Program-made: the position numbers and the translations under genes
Part shown: positions 1,438 through 11,989 of the stretch, piece after piece
Position numbering within the stretch: position 1 is the stretch's first letter
Layout: each line of letters begins with the position of its first letter
The notes under the pieces: generated by a model
What the model saw: only the letters and a program-made list of their open reading frames with translations
Database searches by the model: none
Told to the model about the DNA's origin: nothing
DNA from: a virus
Lineage: Duplodnaviria; Heunggongvirae; Uroviricota; Caudoviricetes
Length of the DNA stretch: 13,193 nt
Virus record (IMG/VR): IMGVR_UViG_2737471845_000021
Strand: one strand, 5' to 3'

Positions 1438-1514
1438 TGGTCCGCCACCGAGGACTCGAACCTCGCACAATCAACTTAGAAGGTTGATGCTCTATCCTGA
1501 TGAGCTAGTGGCGG
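1438..1514 (-). tRNA. tRNA-Arg (anticodon UCU)
   Basis: Minus-strand 77-nt sequence folds as a cloverleaf by hand: acceptor CCGCCAC/GTGGCGG, D-stem GCTC/GAGC, anticodon stem TCAAC/GTTGA with loop CTTCTAA (anticodon TCT), T-arm CGAGG-TTCGAGT-CCTCG, discriminator A, CCA encoded. Confidence 0.85.
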
Positions 1515-1516
1515 AA

Positions 1517-1592
1517 TGGTGGCCCTTGCTGGATTTGAACCAGCGACCTGGCGATTATGAGTCGCTCGCTCTAACCACTGAGCTAAAGGGCC
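1517..1592 (-). tRNA. tRNA-Ile2 (anticodon CAU, lysidine type; formally could be Met)
   Basis: Minus-strand 76-nt cloverleaf GGCCCTTTAGCTCAGTGGTTAGAGCGAGCGACTCATAATCGCCAGGTCGCTGGTTCAAATCCAGCAAGGGCCACCA. Anticodon loop is CTCATAA. Overall sequence is close to E. coli ileX/ileY-type tRNA rather than elongator tRNA-Met. Separated from tRNA-Arg by 2 nt. Confidence 0.8.
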
Positions 1593-2589: not shown

Positions 2590-3408
2590 TCAATGGTGTT
2601 TTAATAACGGATAAGTAAAAAACAACAAATGGCAAAGATTTAAACCAAAATGAAAAAGGGTGGATACCCACACCCGACCACTCCACAACCACGCCAAACC
2701 ATAAATAAAACCAGCAAGCGTAGAAAAGAGAACCAGTAATAAACCACCAGATAAATGATAAAGACCAAAAAGACATGAAGATATAAACAATGCAGTTAAT
2801 GGATGTATAATAAATGACAGACGCTGCTGAAGATATCCTCTAAAAAAAGCCTCTTCAGCAAGTGAAACAAAAAATAGGTTACTCAATATAAATTGAGGTA
2901 ACCAATCAGGAAAATGCAACTCTGGTTTCAACCCACCAACAAAAACACCTGACATTAAAAGTAAAGGAACAGAGAGTAAAAGCATACCCCAAAAACTGTA
3001 AGGCACATTTCGTCTGCCCCCATCGTTGAATAAAGAAGGAAATCCAAGCAATAACAAAAATGGTATTAGTGCCTTGTCAAAATTAAAATACATAATGTAT
3101 GGAGTACTCAGTGGGCCTGCAACTACAGAATTTAAAATCAATGGATTATGAAACCCAGGCCAAATGTGAATAAGCAATCCTGCAGATGACAGAACAAAAC
3201 CAATCTCAATGATTATTCTACACAAATACTTATGTGGCCATTTTATTTTCAATAAAAAACACACACTTACTGTTATGAGAAGAAAAATCGCCTGCCACTT
3301 AATCACACCATTGAGCCCCCCCAAAACAATAGCAATTAACAACAATAATGAAGACAACAACCTATACGAACTTAAGCTAACCAATGACAGAGCCAGAATA
3401 CCCCACAT
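2590..3408 (-). CDS. CPBP family intramembrane metalloprotease (CAAX protease / Abi domain), polytopic membrane protein; cargo gene in AT-rich island
   Basis: 272-aa ORF, ATG at 3408 with AAGGAGG 5 nt upstream. Hydrophobic N-terminal half. All three CPBP motifs in order: EEAFFRGY (EExxxR), FGLYH (FxxxH), HFGLN (HxxxN). Local GC content is much lower than the flanking phage genes. Confidence 0.85.
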   Translation of the reverse strand: MWGILALSLVSLSSYRLLSSLLLLIAIVLGGLNGVIKWQAIFLLITVSVCFLLKIKWPHKYLCRIIIEIGFVLSSAGLLIHIWPGFHNPLILNSVVAGPLSTPYIMYFNFDKALIPFLLLLGFPSLFNDGGRRNVPYSFWGMLLLSVPLLLMSGVFVGGLKPELHFPDWLPQFILSNLFFVSLAEEAFFRGYLQQRLSFIIHPLTALFISSCLFGLYHLSGGLLLVLFSTLAGFIYGLAWLWSGRVWVSTLFHFGLNLCHLLFFTYPLLKHH

Positions 3409-3530: not shown

Positions 3531-3899
3531 CTAATAGACATCCATTTCTAATGAAACGTTTAGTATCATTAGCATTCCTTCAATAACCCCTTCAGCCTTC
3601 TTAAGTTTTTTACCAATATAACCATCAGAACAACCATGTTTTTTTGCCAGAGACATAAATGTCATACCCAAAACGTAATAATCCACGAGCAGATCATGCA
3701 AGTCACTGTTGTTCTTTTTCAAGCGAGCCATACACCCACAAATGATCATCGCGTCATCGTCACAACATTGCGGGCGGGATTTTACTTTTGAATGGATTAG
3801 TCCTTTAAATCCTGCAGCAATAGACGACCAGGTGACATCCTCATGATTATTTGCCACCCATGCACCCCAACGTTCAAGAACCATTTGAATATCACGCAT
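3531..3899 (-). CDS. Phage antitermination protein Q (phage-82 / QuuD-like family)
   Basis: ATG at 3899 preceded by GGAGAAAGG; the track ORF begins 5 codons earlier at a TTG. N-terminus [14 protein letters not shown] and a Cys-rich [16 protein letters not shown] region resemble DLP12 QuuD-type Q proteins. Position is last gene before the late promoter. Confidence 0.75.
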
Positions 3900-3916
3900 C
3901 ACCTTTCTCCACAAAA

Positions 3917-6413: not shown

Positions 6414-6809
6414 TTACCGGGTTGCTAATTTGCAACTCACTTTTTCGTACTTACTGATTGTGATCTCGACCTTCCCTTCCGGGATAACCGGTCCCCACTC
6501 CACCAACATTCTTTTCACCTGGCTGTCGTCTTCCCACACACCCGCGTGGGTCAGGGCGTCAAACAGCGCCTTGTTATAGTTGTCCAGATCGCGGATCCGG
6601 TTATCTGGAGGAAACAACACGATCTCCACTGAAGCAGGTGCCGACGTTGGTTTTGGCAGACGACGTAACTGCTCAACTATTGCTGCACACGCCGCGCTCT
6701 GGAATTTGCGCCCCGTTGCGCTTATCAGGCTCTTACCAGCAAACACCCCTTTGTTGGGGTGTCGCCAGTACGTGTTCACGCTGGGCGGAAAAGGCAGTAT
6801 TAGCTTCAT
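6414..6809 (-). CDS. rusA: RusA-family Holliday junction resolvase
   Basis: 131 aa with the RusA motifs LPFPPSVNTYWRH and RDLDNYNKALFDALTHAGVWEDDSQV. Start ATG overlaps the upstream stop (ATGA). Confidence 0.85.
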   Translation of the reverse strand: MKLILPFPPSVNTYWRHPNKGVFAGKSLISATGRKFQSAACAAIVEQLRRLPKPTSAPASVEIVLFPPDNRIRDLDNYNKALFDALTHAGVWEDDSQVKRMLVEWGPVIPEGKVEITISKYEKVSCKLATR

Positions 6810-7132
6810 ACTTTCAGGCCCCTCTCATGTAACCAGTGGGCTGCACGCAGCCTGGCGTTTGCCTCACCGGCAAGCAGTGCGCGGATAATCCCGACCGCCT
6901 CGCTGTCGTCGTCCTTCACCGCCGTATGAAGAGTGATACCCCGGGCCACGCCACGCTTTATCGTGATGACGCCTTTTTTCTCCAGTGCGCGAAGATGCTC
7001 CACCGCTGCATTCACCGAACGGTATCCCAGCATGGTTGCCACCTCCTGATTGGTTGGAGGAAAGCCACGCTCTTTCTGATAAGAAATCAGCATATCCAGC
7101 ACCTGCTGCTGGCATTGAGTTAACGTCATCAT
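6806..7132 (-). CDS. LexA-like DNA-binding domain protein without the S24 peptidase domain
   Basis: ATG at 7132 overlaps the upstream TAA (TAATG). About 108 aa. LTQCQQQVLDMLISYQKERGFPPTNQEVATMLGYRSVNAAVEHLRALEKKGVITIKRGVARGITL aligns motif-for-motif with the LexA N-terminal winged-helix domain. No Ala-Gly cleavage site or GDSM serine region follows. Confidence 0.65.
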   Translation of the reverse strand: MMTLTQCQQQVLDMLISYQKERGFPPTNQEVATMLGYRSVNAAVEHLRALEKKGVITIKRGVARGITLHTAVKDDDSEAVGIIRALLAGEANARLRAAHWLHERGLKV

Positions 7133-7620
7133 TACGCCCCCACGTAATTCCCTGACAGATACCACTCTTCACCCGATGCAGCGCGCTTGCTGCTTTTCCG
7201 TAAGCACCGCTCACGACGCGCCAGAAAATTGTTTCGTTCTGGCTGGGAGTGGCTTTCACGGAATGCCGCCATCCACACGGTTGCAGCACGACGGTATAAG
7301 CCCCTCGACTCCAGTTCTTCAGCCTGGCGGGTCAGGCACAAAATCACCCGGGGATCGTTAGTGCCGACATAGAAATTGCGCACAGGTCTGGTTTCACGAA
7401 CTGGTTGTGGTTCCGGCTCCTGCGCTCTCTCAGTCAGGCGCGGGAAATGTCTGCGTGTATCTCCTTCACAACGGTGAGCCACACGCCCACTCTGACGTAA
7501 CTTGCTTGCTGACTGCAGAACGCGCTGCCGTGAGTAACCTGCAAAAGCCTCCGCAATGTCTCCGGAAGTACAGCCCGGATGGGCTTCAATGAATTTCTGA
7601 ACGTCATTCAAAAGACTCAT
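7132..7620 (-). CDS. PerC-family-like transcriptional regulator
   Basis: ATG at 7620, 2 nt after the upstream stop, preceded by a G-run. C-terminal segment LESRGLYRRAATVWMAAF resembles the PerC/Pch signature (GLWRRAAxxW). Family call is from motif recall only. Confidence 0.45.
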   Translation of the reverse strand: MSLLNDVQKFIEAHPGCTSGDIAEAFAGYSRQRVLQSASKLRQSGRVAHRCEGDTRRHFPRLTERAQEPEPQPVRETRPVRNFYVGTNDPRVILCLTRQAEELESRGLYRRAATVWMAAFRESHSQPERNNFLARRERCLRKSSKRAASGEEWYLSGNYVGA

Positions 7621-7622
7621 GA

Positions 7623-8441
7623 TCACCCCCTGAATCCTGCCGGGATCTGGCTGTAGTCCACATTGTCGTAACTGGCTTTGAAGTACGGGTCCTCGCGTCT
7701 GGCTGCAGATACCGCAGGAACTTCCCAGGATTCTTCGAAATGACGATCCGGACCAAAGAACGTGACAGCCTGTTTCACAAATTGTGTGCCGCTGTTACCC
7801 ATCGCAGATACCCAGCCCGCGTAGCGTTTCACACCTTCCAGCATGGTTTCGGGGTTTACCCCCTCATTCAAACGGGCTTTCCAGGCTTTGAAGGCTGCAG
7901 ATTTTGAATTGCCACCAGCACGTTTGGGATATGCCAGCCATGCCTGCTCAAACTCCGGAGAGTATTCCGGTCGGTTTGAACGAACTCGCACGGACTCATC
8001 AACTGATGCACCAACAGCTATTGGTTCATTGACTGGTTCATTGACTGGTTCAAAAGAGTGACTGGTTCTGGGTGAATCTCCTGCACTACCCCCTGGTGCA
8101 ACTCCTGCACTACCTGGTGAATTTGCTGCACCAGATAGTGAATTATTTGCACTACCCCCTGGTGAATCTCCTGCACCATCCAGATGAAGGAGATAGATAT
8201 TACTTGAGTTACCTTTTTCACCTTTCCGGGTGACTTTTTTTACCAGCCCGGACTCACAAAGGGCCGCAATATGATTCATCACAGAACGTTTGCTAATCTC
8301 GCACTGGTCAGCAATATGCTGGTAGCTGGGCCAGCACTCACCCTGATCGCTGGCATTATCAGCCAGCTTGATCAGAACCAGTTTTCGCAATGGATTACCC
8401 ACTCGAATTTTCATCGCTTTAACCATCAGCTCCATACTCAT
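7623..8441 (-). CDS. Replication initiator / replisome organiser (lambda O-like; N-terminal HTH, C-terminal Phg_2220_C-like domain)
   Basis: ATG at 8441 with GGAGGTG 6 nt upstream. Internal low-complexity repeats (PVNEPVNEP, GDSPGG) are encoded by the iteron array. C-terminal FEQAWLAYPKRAGGNSKSAAFKAWKARL resembles the conserved phage C-terminus of replisome organisers. Confidence 0.7.
   Translation of the reverse strand: MSMELMVKAMKIRVGNPLRKLVLIKLADNASDQGECWPSYQHIADQCEISKRSVMNHIAALCESGLVKKVTRKGEKGNSSNIYLLHLDGAGDSPGGSANNSLSGAANSPGSAGVAPGGSAGDSPRTSHSFEPVNEPVNEPIAVGASVDESVRVRSNRPEYSPEFEQAWLAYPKRAGGNSKSAAFKAWKARLNEGVNPETMLEGVKRYAGWVSAMGNSGTQFVKQAVTFFGPDRHFEESWEVPAVSAARREDPYFKASYDNVDYSQIPAGFRG
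8010..8180. repeat. Iteron-like direct repeats inside the initiator gene (candidate replication origin)
   Basis: ttcattgactgg occurs twice in tandem (8013..8036); cctggtgaatctcctgcac and ctcctgcactacc recur several times over 8058..8175. Arrangement is analogous to lambda ori inside gene O. Confidence 0.55.
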
Positions 8442-8545
8442 GCTGCACCTCCGAGATGCTTCATGTTTTTTCCGGAGCGAAAGGCTATAAGCGGCATACT
8501 GACGCGGTAATTACGGCCCAACGGTTCACAAATCACTTTCTGACA

Positions 8546-8606
8546 TTCACGGTCAACCAGGCTAACACGTAGAACATGCCCTGCAGGTGTGGTGTACCAC
8601 TGGCCC
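8546..8606. repeat. Core repeat, copy 3 (61 bp), upstream of the replication gene
   Basis: Near-identical to 9475..9534 (two differences). Minus-strand orientation contains the palindrome CCTGCAGG and ends in TTGACC. Confidence 0.8.
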
Positions 8607-8658
8607 GGACGAGGACAACGGAAAGTCTGATTGGTAAACCGTTTGAAAATATTCCGGA

Positions 8659-9204
8659 TCATTTGCCCCCCCTTACCTCTGAAGGGTTCAGTGACAGATT
8701 TATGAGACTGGCCAGTACCGCCGCGTCGTTGATGCGGTCATACAGACTTATAGCCAGCGGGGATTCGGCTTTTGCCAACATGGGATAAAGCTGCTGCAGC
8801 CAGACTTTGTGGATTACCGACAAGTGGGAGTAAAGCACGCTGGCGTTATGTGCGGCATCGCTCAGCGTGGATGGCCTTGAAAGCTGCTTTTCCATCTGGT
8901 TAAAGGCATTGATGTATGCCTCTTTGAACTGGGCAGCACGTTTCCCCGTGAAACCCATAGCAAGAAACGCAAAGCCGTCGCGGGTTATTTGATAGCAAGG
9001 TAGTTTGCGGCCTGTGCAATCGGTGTAATCACTCACCGAAAAATTGCGGGCAGTGAATGATGCGGAACATTCAAGCGTGCGGATCTTTTTCAGTACATCG
9101 TCATGACGTTTGGAGAAGAAGTTGGCAACAGCTAGGGATGAAGTAACAGCCTGACCATCAACGATGGCAATTTCAGGTTGAGTGAGGGTTGGGATCGTAG
9201 CCAT
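8659..9204 (-). CDS. Rha-family phage regulatory protein
   Basis: ATG at 9204 with AGAGG upstream. MATIPTLTQPEIAIVDGQAVTSSLAVANFFSKRHDDVLKKIRTL...ITRDGFAFLAMGFTGKRAAQFKEAYINAFNQME matches the Rha N-terminal domain. The track ORF continues 133 codons upstream through the repeat module; that extension is judged non-coding. Confidence 0.7.
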   Translation of the reverse strand: MATIPTLTQPEIAIVDGQAVTSSLAVANFFSKRHDDVLKKIRTLECSASFTARNFSVSDYTDCTGRKLPCYQITRDGFAFLAMGFTGKRAAQFKEAYINAFNQMEKQLSRPSTLSDAAHNASVLYSHLSVIHKVWLQQLYPMLAKAESPLAISLYDRINDAAVLASLINLSLNPSEVRGGK

Positions 9205-9474
9205 GATGGCAGCCTCTTTGGTGATTTTTAATAACTCACCACCAAGGCTTTCCACGACCTTATTGGTGGTGAGACGTACAGGGGTGGAAATACCGGTCAC
9301 CAAAGAACCCGGCCCAACCGAAGTTGGCCCTGCACGCCCCACCATAATTTGGGCGTAATGCTGCTCATGACACAAAAAAACCGCAAGAGCGCGGTTGTGC
9401 GCTTTGGTGAATTCCGGGTTTCCACGCCCGGCACCCGCTTTATAAGGTGCCTGAACAGTGTAACCTCCCGGAAT
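9184..9474. repeat. Leader module D, copy 1 (about 290 bp), upstream of and overlapping the rha start
   Basis: Homologous to 9809..10096 with conserved blocks: cccaccataatttggg, cccgctttataaggtgcctgaacagtgtaac, gtagccatgatggcagcctc. Hairpins differ in sequence between copies but still pair. Confidence 0.75.
9374..9396 (-). terminator. Intrinsic terminator inside leader module copy 1
   Basis: Minus strand AACCGC-GCUCUU-GCGGUU followed by UUUUU. A predicted promoter lies about 75 nt upstream on the same strand (-35 TTGACC at plus 9480..9485, -10 TACACT at plus 9457..9462). Confidence 0.5.
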
Positions 9475-9534
9475 TTCACGGTCAACCAAGCTAACACGTA
9501 GAACATGCCCTGCAGGTGTGGTGTACCACTGCCC
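9475..9534. repeat. Core repeat, copy 1 (60 bp)
   Basis: Near-identical to 8546..8606. Confidence 0.8.
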
Positions 9535-9595
9535 AACTGTAGGAATTGATGTTTTTTTACGCTGAAGAAAACGGCAAATATTGAGGATCAACGGA

Positions 9596-9829
9596 TTAAG
9601 CATGACGATGCCCTCCGCTGATATTCAGGAGACGGTGAATATGAAAATTAGCCTTATCCGCCAGACGAATACGTTCAGCCTGCAAGTTAAGAAGGGTTTC
9701 TACCAGAACTTCATGCGCCTGCGGATCCGAAAGAGTTACCTTGCGCAGAGCACGTAGTGCAGTTGTTACATAACTGAGTTTATGTAAGTCTTCATCATTC
9801 AGACGAGAGAGGGCTGGGACAGTAGCCAT
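9596..9829 (-). CDS. Hypothetical 77-aa protein; first 8 codons homologous to the rha start
   Basis: ATG at 9829 in the same conserved context as the rha start (gtagccatgatggcagcctc). N-terminus MATVPAL compares with Rha MATIPTL. Function unknown. The track ORF extends 201 codons upstream through leader module copy 2. Confidence 0.4.
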   Translation of the reverse strand: MATVPALSRLNDEDLHKLSYVTTALRALRKVTLSDPQAHEVLVETLLNLQAERIRLADKANFHIHRLLNISGGHRHA

Positions 9830-10096
9830 GATGGCAGCCTCCGTATGCAATGGATAACTTCCACCACCGGAAACGCCAATTTCGCTGGTGGTGAACTGAG
9901 CAGGGTTGGCGTAACCGGCGCATACGGAAACCGGCGCACCTTTCGGTGCCCCCACCCAGCCCACCATAATTTGGGTATAGCTGAGTTGTAGCAACAAAAA
10001 AGACGCTAACGCGCCAATTGTCGCCGTATGCAATTCCAGGACGCCAATCCCGACACCCGCTTTATAAGGTGCCTGAACAGTGTAACGTCCCGGAAT
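9809..10096. repeat. Leader module D, copy 2
   Basis: See copy 1. Lacks the 60-bp core but has its own promoter-like element (-35 TTGATT at plus 10102..10107, 17-nt spacer, -10 TACACT at plus 10079..10084). Confidence 0.75.
9996..10015 (-). terminator. Intrinsic terminator inside leader module copy 2
   Basis: Minus strand GGCGC-GUUA-GCGUC followed by UUUUUU. Different stem sequence from copy 1 at the equivalent position, but still a hairpin plus U-tract. Confidence 0.45.
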
Positions 10097-10428
10097 GGCA
10101 GAATCAATGTGCTGGTGGTCCTTCACACTCAACAAAATCACGCCTGAATTTCCACAAAGGACTAAAGCACTCATGCGGGTAGTCTTTGCGAAGATAGATA
10201 ACGCGCTGTGTTTCTGGCTCCCAACGAATAACATGAACATAAAGTCCTCTTCCGTCACGAAACCAGCGGTTAAGTTCCTGCACAACTCGCCCCCCACAGT
10301 CAGGTAAAGTTCTCTGTGGTTACTTACAGCCAGGTGATTTGGTAATCTGCATTCATGCCGTAACAACAGGTGTTCAGCGACGCTGACCACCAACTGTTGC
10401 GACAAACGGTTATTTGCCGTTAAACTGT

Positions 10429-10980
10429 TCATGCGTTAGTTTCTCCACGGACACAAAACGCCACGACGCCCGGAGCTGCACACTCGCGGGCGTCACTCTT
10501 TTCTGGAGCGCAGAAAATTTTGTAGACCAGCGCCGCATGTTCCTGGAGCTTCGAAATCGACAGATACAACTCATCATTAATTGCTGTCTGTTCATGTGGC
10601 TCCACTAGCCCATCTTCGATTGCCGAACGAATCTGCTTTGAGTAACTCCCGATCTGTTCAATGACTTCCAGTAGACGTTGGTTGATATCAGCGTTCTCTA
10701 CTTCCTCAATTTCAGGAAGTGATACAAACACCCCACCAGCAGACTGTGCGACAGCATCCGCAATGTGATGAGTACTAGCCGCACGCTGTAAAACCATTGC
10801 CCATCCCAACGGAAAAAACTGATCACCATCGGCACGAAGGCGGTTGAATAAAGCGTTCTCTGTTACATCCAGCCACTCAGCAGCTTCAGCGTAACCACCT
10901 GGCAATGCCGCGATAGTTTTTCTGACAGCTTTCACATACCAGTCAGGTTGTTTTTCCACTTTCCAGTGATGCTTACCCAC
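10429..10980 (-). CDS. CII-like / YdaT-family early regulatory protein
   Basis: GTG start with AGGAGG 7 nt upstream. 183 aa. Sits immediately downstream of the Cro/YdaS-like gene, as ydaT follows ydaS in Rac-type prophages. Family call rests on position and recall, not a search. Confidence 0.55.
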   Translation of the reverse strand: MGKHHWKVEKQPDWYVKAVRKTIAALPGGYAEAAEWLDVTENALFNRLRADGDQFFPLGWAMVLQRAASTHHIADAVAQSAGGVFVSLPEIEEVENADINQRLLEVIEQIGSYSKQIRSAIEDGLVEPHEQTAINDELYLSISKLQEHAALVYKIFCAPEKSDARECAAPGVVAFCVRGETNA

Positions 10981-11314: not shown

Positions 11315-11989
11315 ATGAAAACAATCCATGACATCCGGCGGTCTAACGCCAGAAAACTGAGAGATGGTGTTGGCGGAAATTCATCCTTTGCCACCATGAT
11401 TGATCGCGAGCCTACCCAGACCAGCAGGTTTATGGGGGATGGCGCTACTAAAAATATCGGTGACAGCATGGCACGGCACATCGAAAAATGTTTCGACCTG
11501 CCTGTCGGATGGCTTGATCAAGAACACCAGACAACGAACATCACAAAAAAACCTGATGTTTCAATCACTAATAAAAAAATAACGTTAGTCCCTGTCATAT
11601 CATGGGTACAGGCCGGAGCATGGAAAGAAGTTGGCTATTCTGAGGTTGATTTGAGCACAACAGAAACGTATCCCTGCCCTGTACCCTGTGGCGAAATGAC
11701 TTATATATTGAGGGTGATTGGTGATTCAATGATTGATGAGTACCGTCCGGGAGACATGATTTTTGTCGATCCAGAAGTACCAGCCTGCCACGGCGATGAC
11801 GTTATTGCATTGATGCACGATACAGGTGAAACCACCTTCAAAAGGTTGATAGAAGACGGGACACAGCGTTATCTCAAAGCATTAAACCCCAACTGGCCTG
11901 AGCCTTACATTAAGATAAACGGTAATTGCTCTATCATTGGTACAGTTATTTTCTCAGGAAAACCAAGAAGATACAAAATTAAAGCCTGA
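11315..11989 (+). CDS. cI: CI-type prophage repressor (N-terminal HTH, C-terminal S24 LexA-like autopeptidase)
   Basis: 224 aa. C-terminal domain is closely lambda-CI-like: VIGDSM (Ser nucleophile), TFKRL (Lys), LNPNWPEPYIKINGNCSIIGTVIFS. Candidate Ala-Gly cleavage site in VQAGAW. Confidence 0.9.
   Translation: MKTIHDIRRSNARKLRDGVGGNSSFATMIDREPTQTSRFMGDGATKNIGDSMARHIEKCFDLPVGWLDQEHQTTNITKKPDVSITNKKITLVPVISWVQAGAWKEVGYSEVDLSTTETYPCPVPCGEMTYILRVIGDSMIDEYRPGDMIFVDPEVPACHGDDVIALMHDTGETTFKRLIEDGTQRYLKALNPNWPEPYIKINGNCSIIGTVIFSGKPRRYKIKA

Follow-up and report, generated by a model that had tools for sequence, protein, structure and literature searches.

Two leader modules in the early region of a lambdoid prophage are copies of the IsrK/seqA and C4/CI phage RNA switch

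Results

Two IsrK-C4 cassettes in an early operon

The DNA analysed here, called the window, is a stretch of 13,193 nucleotides from a virus of the Caudoviricetes (IMG/VR record IMGVR_UViG_2737471845_000021). The gene order on its minus strand is that of the early region of a lambdoid prophage, and two homologous leader modules of about 300 nt lie within it, module 1 upstream of rha and module 2 upstream of a gene for a 77-aa protein (Table 1). Both modules are copies of an already described phage RNA switch, an IsrK/seqA-type small RNA followed by a C4/CI-type antisense RNA, and by analogy with P1, P4 and Gifsy-1 they would have the known job of these cassettes, the silencing of anti-repressor-type genes. 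Each module is, with a probability that we put at about 0.85, an RNA immunity cassette of the P1 immI or P4 type placed in the early right operon of a lambdoid prophage. The analysis established the family membership and anatomy of the modules, a three-way complementarity with covariation, the lack of a coding signal in the leaders and the mosaic origin of the region. An earlier note on this DNA had described the repeats and proposed that they were small RNA genes, attenuators or antitermination leaders of a kind not described before; its observation was confirmed and its interpretation is partly supported, but the element was already known.

A scan of the window against Rfam with the curated thresholds found in each module an isrK match (RF01394) and, about 25 nt further on, a full-length C4 match (RF01695). 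The isrK matches, at 9450-9374 (67 bits) and 10072-9996 (58.9 bits), span model positions 1-77 of 77, and the C4 matches, at 9349-9262 (83.6 bits) and 9971-9884 (80.7 bits), span positions 1-87 of 87; all four lie above the gathering scores of 50 for isrK and 45 for C4. Their E-values range from 1e-10 to 1e-15, those of C4 being 1e-15 and 6e-15. In both modules the matches form adjacent pairs on the minus strand, and in a set of 20 diverse viral loci isrK immediately precedes C4 in 17. Only isrK, C4 and tRNA models passed the threshold in the window, in a library for which the presence of a put model was unconfirmed. Given these curated families, together with full-length homology to the P1 immI leader and to the seqA-CI region of P4, the statement of the earlier note that no described element matches the modules is wrong: they resolve into two curated RNA families with decades of genetics and do not form a new class.

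Over 298 positions the full-length modules are 62.8% identical, and two direct repeats join them (9410-9485 with 10032-10107, 83%; 9180-9216 with 9805-9841, 89%). Repeat search, consensus scans and the sequence itself placed the repeats, promoters, hairpins and terminators where they had been claimed to be. IsrK accounts for two of the hairpins in the earlier note: GGCACC...GGUGCC is its hairpin 1, and the one with the U-tract is its terminator. The UUCG and GAAA tetraloops, both present, belong to hairpin 1 of C4, and the long stem before the ribosome-binding site, formed in module 2 by CACCACC/GGUGGUG, is the hairpin presenting the site a2. The transcript ends proposed earlier, 9374 and 9996, coincide with the 3' ends of the isrK models, and the predicted minus-strand small RNA of about 77 nt would be IsrK. 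The promoter of module 1 (TTGACC-17-TACACT) was recovered by the scan and aligns with P51b of P1. That of module 2 (TTGATT-17-TACACT) is present in the sequence one match short of the scan cut-off; it is unchanged in more than 25 related loci, aligns with the P1 promoter P1c4/P51b, and has the TGA stop of the DUF4222 gene within its -35 element.

Table 1. Features of the two modules and of the surrounding window
Feature	Position	Strand	Basis or remark
Module 2 promoter	10079-10107	-	-35 TTGATT 10107-10102, 17-nt spacer, -10 TACACT 10084-10079
Module 2 IsrK/seqA-type small RNA, 77 nt	9996-10072	-	RF01394, predicted
Module 2 a1 TTGGCGT	10047-10041	-	hairpin 2 loop of IsrK
Module 2 b1 GCATACGG	10031-10024	-	single-stranded IsrK linker
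Module 2 intrinsic terminator	10015-9996	-	terminator scan; hairpin 10015-10002 + T-run
Module 2 C4/CI-type antisense RNA	9884-9971	-	RF01695
Module 2 b' UCCGUAUGC	9928-9920	-	C4 hairpin 2 loop
Module 2 a' ACGCCAA	9912-9906	-	C4 junction
Module 2 target region	9840-9879	-	exact complements of a' and b'; covariation
Module 2 a2 TTGGCGT	9879-9873	-	loop of CACCACC/GGTGGTG hairpin
Module 2 b2 GCATACGGA	9848-9840	-	overlaps Shine-Dalgarno GGAGG of 77-aa gene
77-aa gene under module 2	9596-9829	-	phrog_4908/3960
Module 1 promoter	9457-9485	-	-35 TTGACC 9485-9480, 17 nt, -10 TACACT 9462-9457; promoter scan
Module 1 IsrK/seqA-type small RNA	9374-9450	-	RF01394, predicted
Module 1 a1 GTGGAAA	9425-9419	-	IsrK hairpin 2 loop
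Module 1 b1 TCACCAAAG	9410-9402	-	IsrK linker
Module 1 terminator	9396-9374	-	terminator scan; hairpin 9396-9379 + T-run
Module 1 C4/CI-type antisense RNA	9262-9349	-	RF01695
Module 1 b' UCUUUGGUGA	9306-9297	-	
Module 1 a' UUUCCAC	9290-9284	-	
Module 1 target region	9215-9255	-	complementarity and covariation
Module 1 a2 GTGGAAA	9255-9249	-	loop of CUCACCACCAA/UUGGUGGUGAG hairpin
Module 1 b2 TCACCAAAGA	9224-9215	-	overlaps Shine-Dalgarno AGAGG of rha
rha under module 1, 181 aa, Rha-family regulator or anti-repressor-type	8659-9204	-	PF09669, E 5e-31
278-codon open frame, eta-like	9596-10432	-	in frame with 77-aa gene through module 2
314-codon open frame, eta-like	8659-9603	-	truncated phrog_1153 start, translated module 1 and Rha in one frame
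Truncated 5' fragment of phrog_1153 small gene, 43 codons	9475-9603	-	PHROG E 4.6e-17, profile 1-39 of 74
Intact 74-aa phrog_1153 gene	8438-8662	-	PHROG E 1.3e-45, full length
cI-like S24 repressor	11315-11989	+	first in the gene order, then cro-like gene
cII-like CP76 gene	10429-10980	-	
DUF4222 gene, usual neighbour before module	10104-10283	-	PF13973, E 9.5e-14; order shared with sequences L001 and L125
Helix-turn-helix/DnaD-like replication gene	7623-8441	-	
PerC-like, LexA-DNA-binding-domain, RusA, KilA-N and DUF968 genes			further downstream
Q antiterminator	3531-3914	-	followed by Rce1-like membrane protease gene and two tRNAs

Address sequences and their covariation

In each module the loop and junction of C4 carry two short addresses, b' and a', that match both IsrK and the start region of the downstream gene. 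The a' of module 1 (UUUCCAC) complements GTGGAAA twice, in IsrK and in the target hairpin, and its b' complements TCACCAAAG(A) in IsrK and once more on the Shine-Dalgarno sequence of rha. In module 2 a' (ACGCCAA) complements TTGGCGT at a1 and at a2, and b' complements GCATACGG(A) at b1 and at b2. The a2 and b2 complements are exact in both modules, 7 nt long for a and 9-10 nt for b, and b2 covers the ribosome-binding site. The three-way match between C4, IsrK and ribosome-binding site has thus been kept in both copies despite different sequences, and neither cassette has a complement of at least 7 nt in the a or b sites of the other, in either direction.

The same relations were examined in 120 viral contigs with the C4 pattern, which yielded 119 unique modules with 84 different b'/a' combinations. 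The a and b sites stand at fixed positions and distances across related modules. Among 118 unique modules the longest exact complement was longer in cognate than in non-cognate combinations at all four sites: 8.3 vs 4.6 nt at b2, 6.9 vs 4.5 at a2, 7.0 vs 4.8 at a1 and 7.1 vs 4.8 at b1. In 112 aligned modules 92.7% of the cells of a1:a' and b1:b' were paired, compared with 58.7% after shuffling and 32-48% when the sites were slid, and a':a2 and b':b2 were paired in 83.4% vs 57.0% shuffled. The covariation scores were 0.685 vs 0.169 for the IsrK side, with all 15 of 15 pairs varying on both sides, and 0.631 vs 0.193 for the target side (16 of 16 pairs); 0 of 500 shuffles reached either score, counts which, the related modules being phylogenetically non-independent, overstate the number of independent events and are not probabilities. 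The slid controls retain this relatedness, yet score far lower. Whole-molecule duplex energies of C4 with IsrK or target segments were also calculated, and were between -44 and -58 kcal/mol for cognate and non-cognate partners alike; since they do not discriminate, the exact-complement and covariation tests were used instead.

Selection on RNA, as the earlier note proposed from hairpins that differ in sequence and still pair, is therefore borne out, but the within-hairpin changes it stressed are secondary. The selection acts mainly on long-range pairing, and the covariation that sets specificity is that between IsrK, C4 and the ribosome-binding site. One b' sequence, TTTCCGTATGCG, is combined with at least 4 different a' sequences among the contigs, so that a' and b' reassort between contigs. 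The genes downstream in 87 related loci include Rha (32), Bro-N (13) and Derepression, the P4 epsilon family (8), which fits control of anti-repressor-type functions; gating of the downstream gene by the leader is likewise supported.

The same leaders could act purely in cis, as transcription attenuators in which the terminator and alternative leader folds set the read-through and no RNA works in trans. There is an intrinsic terminator inside each leader, CACCACC, which is the 3' side of the stem closing C4, has an alternative partner in the downstream GGUGGUG arm, and the long Gifsy-1 transcript takes alternative intramolecular structures A and B (PMC4825925). However, IsrK of Gifsy-1 works in trans from a plasmid (PMC4825925), and the addresses vary freely yet stay matched, with a' and b' reassorting as expected of trans specificity determinants. 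P1 c4 and P4 CI are established to act in trans and to set immunity specificity. We consider attenuation alone unlikely. Processive antitermination of the put type, in which RNA polymerase would be modified to pass terminators into rha and the replication genes, is barely credible. It had been suggested solely by analogy, from structured early-operon leaders with no obvious N gene nearby, and the isrK and C4 models account for every structured element. What is conserved over long range is the antisense pairing with the Shine-Dalgarno region and not an RNA-polymerase-binding structure, which points to translational control. Moreover, of the three genes said to be preceded by a module only two carry one, the replication gene having none in front of it.

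Two further complements of the addresses occur in the window. A 10-nt exact complement of module 1 b', ACCAAAGAAC, lies in the cro-like gene at 11200-11191 (minus strand), with about 0.07 expected by chance in the window, and may mark another target of C4 or be coincidental. Within the DUF4222 gene, positions 10155-10148 complement 8 nt of a'. As candidate additional C4 targets both were judged compatible with chance.

Long open frames and the Phage_ASH family

Each module is crossed by a long open frame that continues into the downstream gene. The 278-codon frame begins at an ATG that shares the sequence ATGA (10432-10429) with the cII-like stop codon; the 314-codon frame begins at 9603, within the end of the 77-aa gene and 2 nt ahead of its TAA. 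Of 95 related modules, 73 keep a frame open as far as the ATG of the gene, always the frame in the same register with the RNA; the other two frames are open that far in 26 and 17. Where the frame is in phase with the gene (65 cases), its first ATG precedes the internal promoter (at least 290 nt upstream) in 57; in 37 of the 65 it overlaps the stop of an upstream open reading frame of at least 50 codons, as ATGA in 36 of these 37. The predicted frames follow the known layout of P4 eta and kil. A frame of this kind, 603-606 nt long, recurs in many related loci.

Genuine long proteins, in which a leader-encoded "Ash" domain is fused to Rha and to the 77-aa protein, could also account for the frames, the conservation of sequence then being that of a protein and not of an RNA. 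The translated leaders score above the gathering threshold of Pfam family PF10554 (Phage_ASH), at E-values of 1.7e-15 and 1.6e-16; the matches cover residues 117-209 of the 278-codon frame and 48-144 of the 314-codon frame, which are the translated leader. In both copies, and in 54 of the 95 related modules, no stop interrupts the frame anywhere in the module; annotation pipelines call such products "ash family protein" or "immunity region" and place them in PHROGs 821, 995, 3960 and 4908, and papers on Shiga toxin (Stx) phages mention Rha/Ash domain proteins. However, the substitutions do not have the pattern of a protein. Codon position 3 holds a share of 0.31 of the substitutions in related leaders, which are even over the positions, vs 0.59 in the first 300 nt of the genes next to them in these loci, and the variability of the C4 columns has no 3-nt periodicity (p = 0.40). 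The bias towards synonymous substitution over the 314- and 278-aa reading frames that the earlier note had named as the mark of true proteins was looked for in this comparison, and no coding pattern was found. The frame contains in-frame stops in 22 of the 95 modules and is open out of the frame of the gene in 20. In P4, PF10554 matches the obsolete "cI protein" reading frame over the CI RNA, and the real P4 epsilon protein belongs to another family, PF25738; in Gifsy-1 orf45 nucleotides are conserved and amino acids variable (PMC4825925). The three-way RNA complementarity, finally, has no protein explanation. A fused Ash protein is thus very improbable.

Since the leader matches of Phage_ASH come without a coding-type pattern, what PF10554 models appears to be an RNA region in translated form, corresponding to the N-terminal part of the eta-like reading frames. 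Its matches fall on 9172-9462 and 9805-10084 of the window (minus strand) and on 8330-8521 of P4 (L126). The enrichment of one frame without a codon signal suggests that the long frames are kept open, probably for the passage of ribosomes and not for a conserved peptide; an artefact of composition was considered as the alternative.

The leader is found annotated as protein in several records: at 8659-9603 and 9596-10432 of the window, at 1869-2705 of sequence L123 and at 1423-2001 of L125. Phage Ayreon carries a 278-aa "immunity region" coding sequence, and RefSeq a 192-aa "ash family protein" overlapping DUF4222; other records label the leader "peptidase" or "transcriptional regulator". The PHROG profiles 821, 995, 3960 and 4908 hold 46-143 leader-derived residues before the true start, and some papers take PF10554 as "Ash/epsilon" or as the "Ash domain" of Rha proteins. 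RNA cassettes of lambdoid and Stx prophages are thus routinely mis-annotated as N-terminal protein extensions, and "Rha/Ash" proteins are discussed in papers on that footing.

Mosaic origin and tandem cassettes

A 60-bp core had been described as a leader element recurring before the replication gene. The repeat is real (8546-8605 vs 9475-9534, 97% identity), but its role as a leader there is not supported. The copy at 8605-8546 lies within the intact 74-aa phrog_1153 gene, which is annotated as a coding sequence in E. coli genomes and in phage Ayreon, and the copy at 9534-9475 lies within the 43-codon fragment of the same family, whose ATG overlaps the end of the 77-aa gene and which supplies the -35 TTGACC of module 1. 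The core is the duplicated 5' part of a small protein gene, a recombination scar and not an RNA leader.

Ayreon, 98.9% identical, has a single module in the order cII, DUF4222, module 2, 77-aa gene, small gene, replication gene, and the typical order in E. coli prophages is DUF4222, module, rha, small gene, replication gene. From these two orders the window reads as an Ayreon-like backbone with a recombined segment of module 1, rha and small gene, the second cassette having been added by recombination inside the small downstream gene. At the left junction (9457-9490, minus strand), which is placed between the -35 and the spacer, the small gene and the module -35 share a TTGA microhomology; the junction replaces the usual TTGATT by TTGACC, nearer to consensus, and retains the 17-nt spacing. 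The same event produced an in-frame fusion of the truncated small gene, the leader and Rha. The junction is also present in viral contig L127, which, being 99.99% identical to the window, is no independent occurrence. An exact search for the junction in the GTDB species representative genomes found none, and among the best matches in complete E. coli genomes there was no collinear two-module match, only non-collinear single-module ones.

Tandem cassettes as such are uncommon but not unique. Other viral contigs carry IsrK-C4 cassettes about 656 bp apart, two each in L008 (6535-7985), L028 (4574-6039) and L030 and three in L055 (9292-11209), each preceding a Rha-type gene of 120 to 187 aa; L085 has two C4 copies about 2.6 kb apart. 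In all five contigs a' and b' always differ within the contig. What is out of the ordinary here is the tandem of two mutually non-complementary cassettes, and a Pfam family, "Ash", that models translated RNA. Tandem orthogonal cassettes suggest that phages stack independent channels of RNA immunity. It is possible, if on balance doubtful, that such tandems form a multi-channel immunity with separate anti-repressor-type effectors and a combinatorial a'/b' code, and that the fusion of truncated gene, leader and Rha is an eta-like bypass. If so, the fusion in the window could tie Rha synthesis to early transcription, and stacked channels could matter for prophage cross-induction among relatives of Shiga-toxin phages.

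Other features of the window

The 77-aa protein gave no match in Pfam or NCBIfam and no alignment with Icd of P1; a search of PDB sequences brought up nothing beyond two entries matched weakly (E 0.015 and 0.11). Downstream of the Q gene, tRNA-Met(CAT) and tRNA-Arg(TCT) lie side by side (1438-1592, minus strand), a pair at a place typical of Stx-type lambdoid phages. Between Q and the tRNAs, a frequent site of cargo genes in lambdoid phages, is a gene for a 272-aa membrane protein (2590-3408, minus strand) with an Rce1-like/CPBP domain (PF02517, E 3e-19). Past the replication gene, still within the early operon, 6806-7165 and 7132-7626 (minus strand) encode a 119-aa protein with a LexA DNA-binding domain but no S24 protease and a PerC-like protein, which may add to the regulation of induction.

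Discussion

A working model can be drawn for the modules in which transcription, termination, processing, repression in trans, decoy action and translational override are taken from experiments on P1, P4 and Gifsy-1. A promoter at the end of the upstream reading frame, the counterpart of the constitutive P51b of P1 and PLE of P4, would launch the leader transcript, and the intrinsic terminator would halt most transcripts to give the 77-nt IsrK (seqA or a1b1) RNA. From those that read through, the C4 (CI) RNA would be cut as a stable antisense RNA displaying its two addresses, b' in the loop of hairpin 2 and a' in the junction before the closing stem. These would pair with a2 in the hairpin loop and b2 on the Shine-Dalgarno sequence and block translation of the downstream gene, and the loss of translation would favour Rho-dependent polarity. 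Since IsrK carries the same targets as a1 and b1, it would compete for C4, either released or still within the long transcript, a step which in Gifsy-1 turns translation on (PMC4825925). Transcription from an upstream early promoter would let ribosomes enter the long frame, which traverses the leader in phase with the gene and whose start is coupled to the stop of the preceding gene; its translation would override the RNA block as eta does in P4. With non-complementary addresses, one cassette would gate the 77-aa gene and the other rha.

Besides the relatedness of the compared modules, several points weigh against this interpretation. The promoters and terminators of the window are consensus matches: the scan gave 1 promoter-like site vs 3.6 expected, with no excess over shuffles, and 7 terminator-like sites vs 3.4 expected, a weak excess at most. 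The consensus scans alone are therefore not above chance, and it is the four Rfam matches that lift the observation above it. The b1 site is the weakest of the four, with a complement of at least 7 nt in only 75 of 118 loci. The direction of the IsrK effect differs among the models for P1, P4 and Gifsy-1, and the RNA could be a decoy that relieves repression or a partner which termination requires. The 5' third of the 278-codon frame overlaps the entire DUF4222 gene in another frame (10104-10432, minus strand), and with this and the stops in 22 of 95 frames the eta-like override may not hold everywhere.

Comparison with known systems

The immI region of P1 is the closest in layout, with the order promoter or promoters, a1, b1, a terminator-like hairpin with T-run, c4, a2, b2 and the first gene of the anti-repressor operon. 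Both window modules can be aligned with its leader over the full distance between the -35, in P51b, and the start codon, that of icd. Citron and Schuster are said to have described in 1990 how the c4 antisense RNA of P1 and P7 immI controls icd-ant through the a1/b1 and a2/b2 sites. P1 c4 is trimmed from the leader by RNase P at its 5' end, and repression in trans is known for P1, P7 and P4. The annotated P1 genome lists promoters, a1, b1, c4, a2, b2, icd and ant in this region; c4 has b' in the loop of hairpin 2 and a' in the 3' junction, and the two pair with a2/b2 ahead of icd, where b2 covers the Shine-Dalgarno sequence, and further upstream with a putative a1/b1 pair of sites. As between P1 and P7, for which the Rfam entries are RF01695 and RF03163, specificity in the window modules differs with the address sequences. 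Unlike immI, the window belongs to a lambdoid prophage with rha and the 77-aa gene in place of icd-ant, its upstream part scores as isrK and not as c4-a1b1, and its two cassettes stand in tandem.

In P4 the same isrK and C4 pair lies upstream of kil with the same start context, aggaggctgccatcATGGCTAC, and the P4 sequence, which was checked, has eta crossing the whole RNA region in frame with kil from an ATGA overlap on the upstream stop. The P4 eta gene spans seqA-CI-seqC and is coupled to an alpA homologue, and its translation from the upstream promoter prevents immunity-dependent termination (Sabbattini 1995 and Forti 1999, as summarised in PMC10111431). In P4, however, the documented result is a Rho-dependent stop of transcription at timm that shields the satellite's replication genes, whereas the window has rha and a small gene downstream in a lambdoid early operon, and its module 2 frame overlaps a real DUF4222 gene.

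Gifsy-1 offers a 77-nt IsrK with its own promoter and terminator and read-through into an anti-repressor gene, which in the window are predicted. There the isrK promoter drives an untranslated read-through isrK-orf45-anrP mRNA (Hershko-Shalev 2016, PMC4825925). A helix with the pairs G28:C162 and G31:C159 was defined by mutation, with G28A and G31A made in IsrK and C162U and C159U further downstream (PMC4825925); in window numbering positions 28-31 fall in a1 and 159-162 in a'. IsrK in trans activates translation, and this activation and Hfq association have been demonstrated only in Gifsy-1 (PMC4825925). A stable processed RNA downstream of IsrK, STnc1160, occupies the position of C4, and the authors remarked on the likeness to P4 seqA and CI (PMC4825925). 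The conserved AUG at the 5' end of C4 (9345, position 106) and the AUG that comes first in orf45 (position 107) are no more than 1 nt apart, which makes orf45 a reading frame through C4. In contrast to the window frames, which run into rha and the 77-aa gene without a stop, orf45 ends on the start of anrP (AUGA), and no AntQ-type gene adjoins the window modules, Q lying about 5 kb downstream at 3531-3914.

The put RNAs of HK022 are also structured early-operon phage RNAs that influence downstream gene expression, but they act in cis on RNA polymerase, which then ignores terminators, and have no antisense targets, unlike the trans-type addresses matched to the ribosome-binding site and the decoy RNA of the window. 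The sar RNA of P22, according to a review, is a small phage RNA that blocks translation of an anti-repressor (ant) through pairing with its start region; it is a true cis-antisense RNA from the opposite strand, whereas C4 lies on the same strand upstream of its target and uses two short loops. In some 110 distinct modules a single address code is common to IsrK, C4 and the ribosome-binding site, which ties the separate descriptions of P1, P4 and Gifsy-1 into one mechanism.

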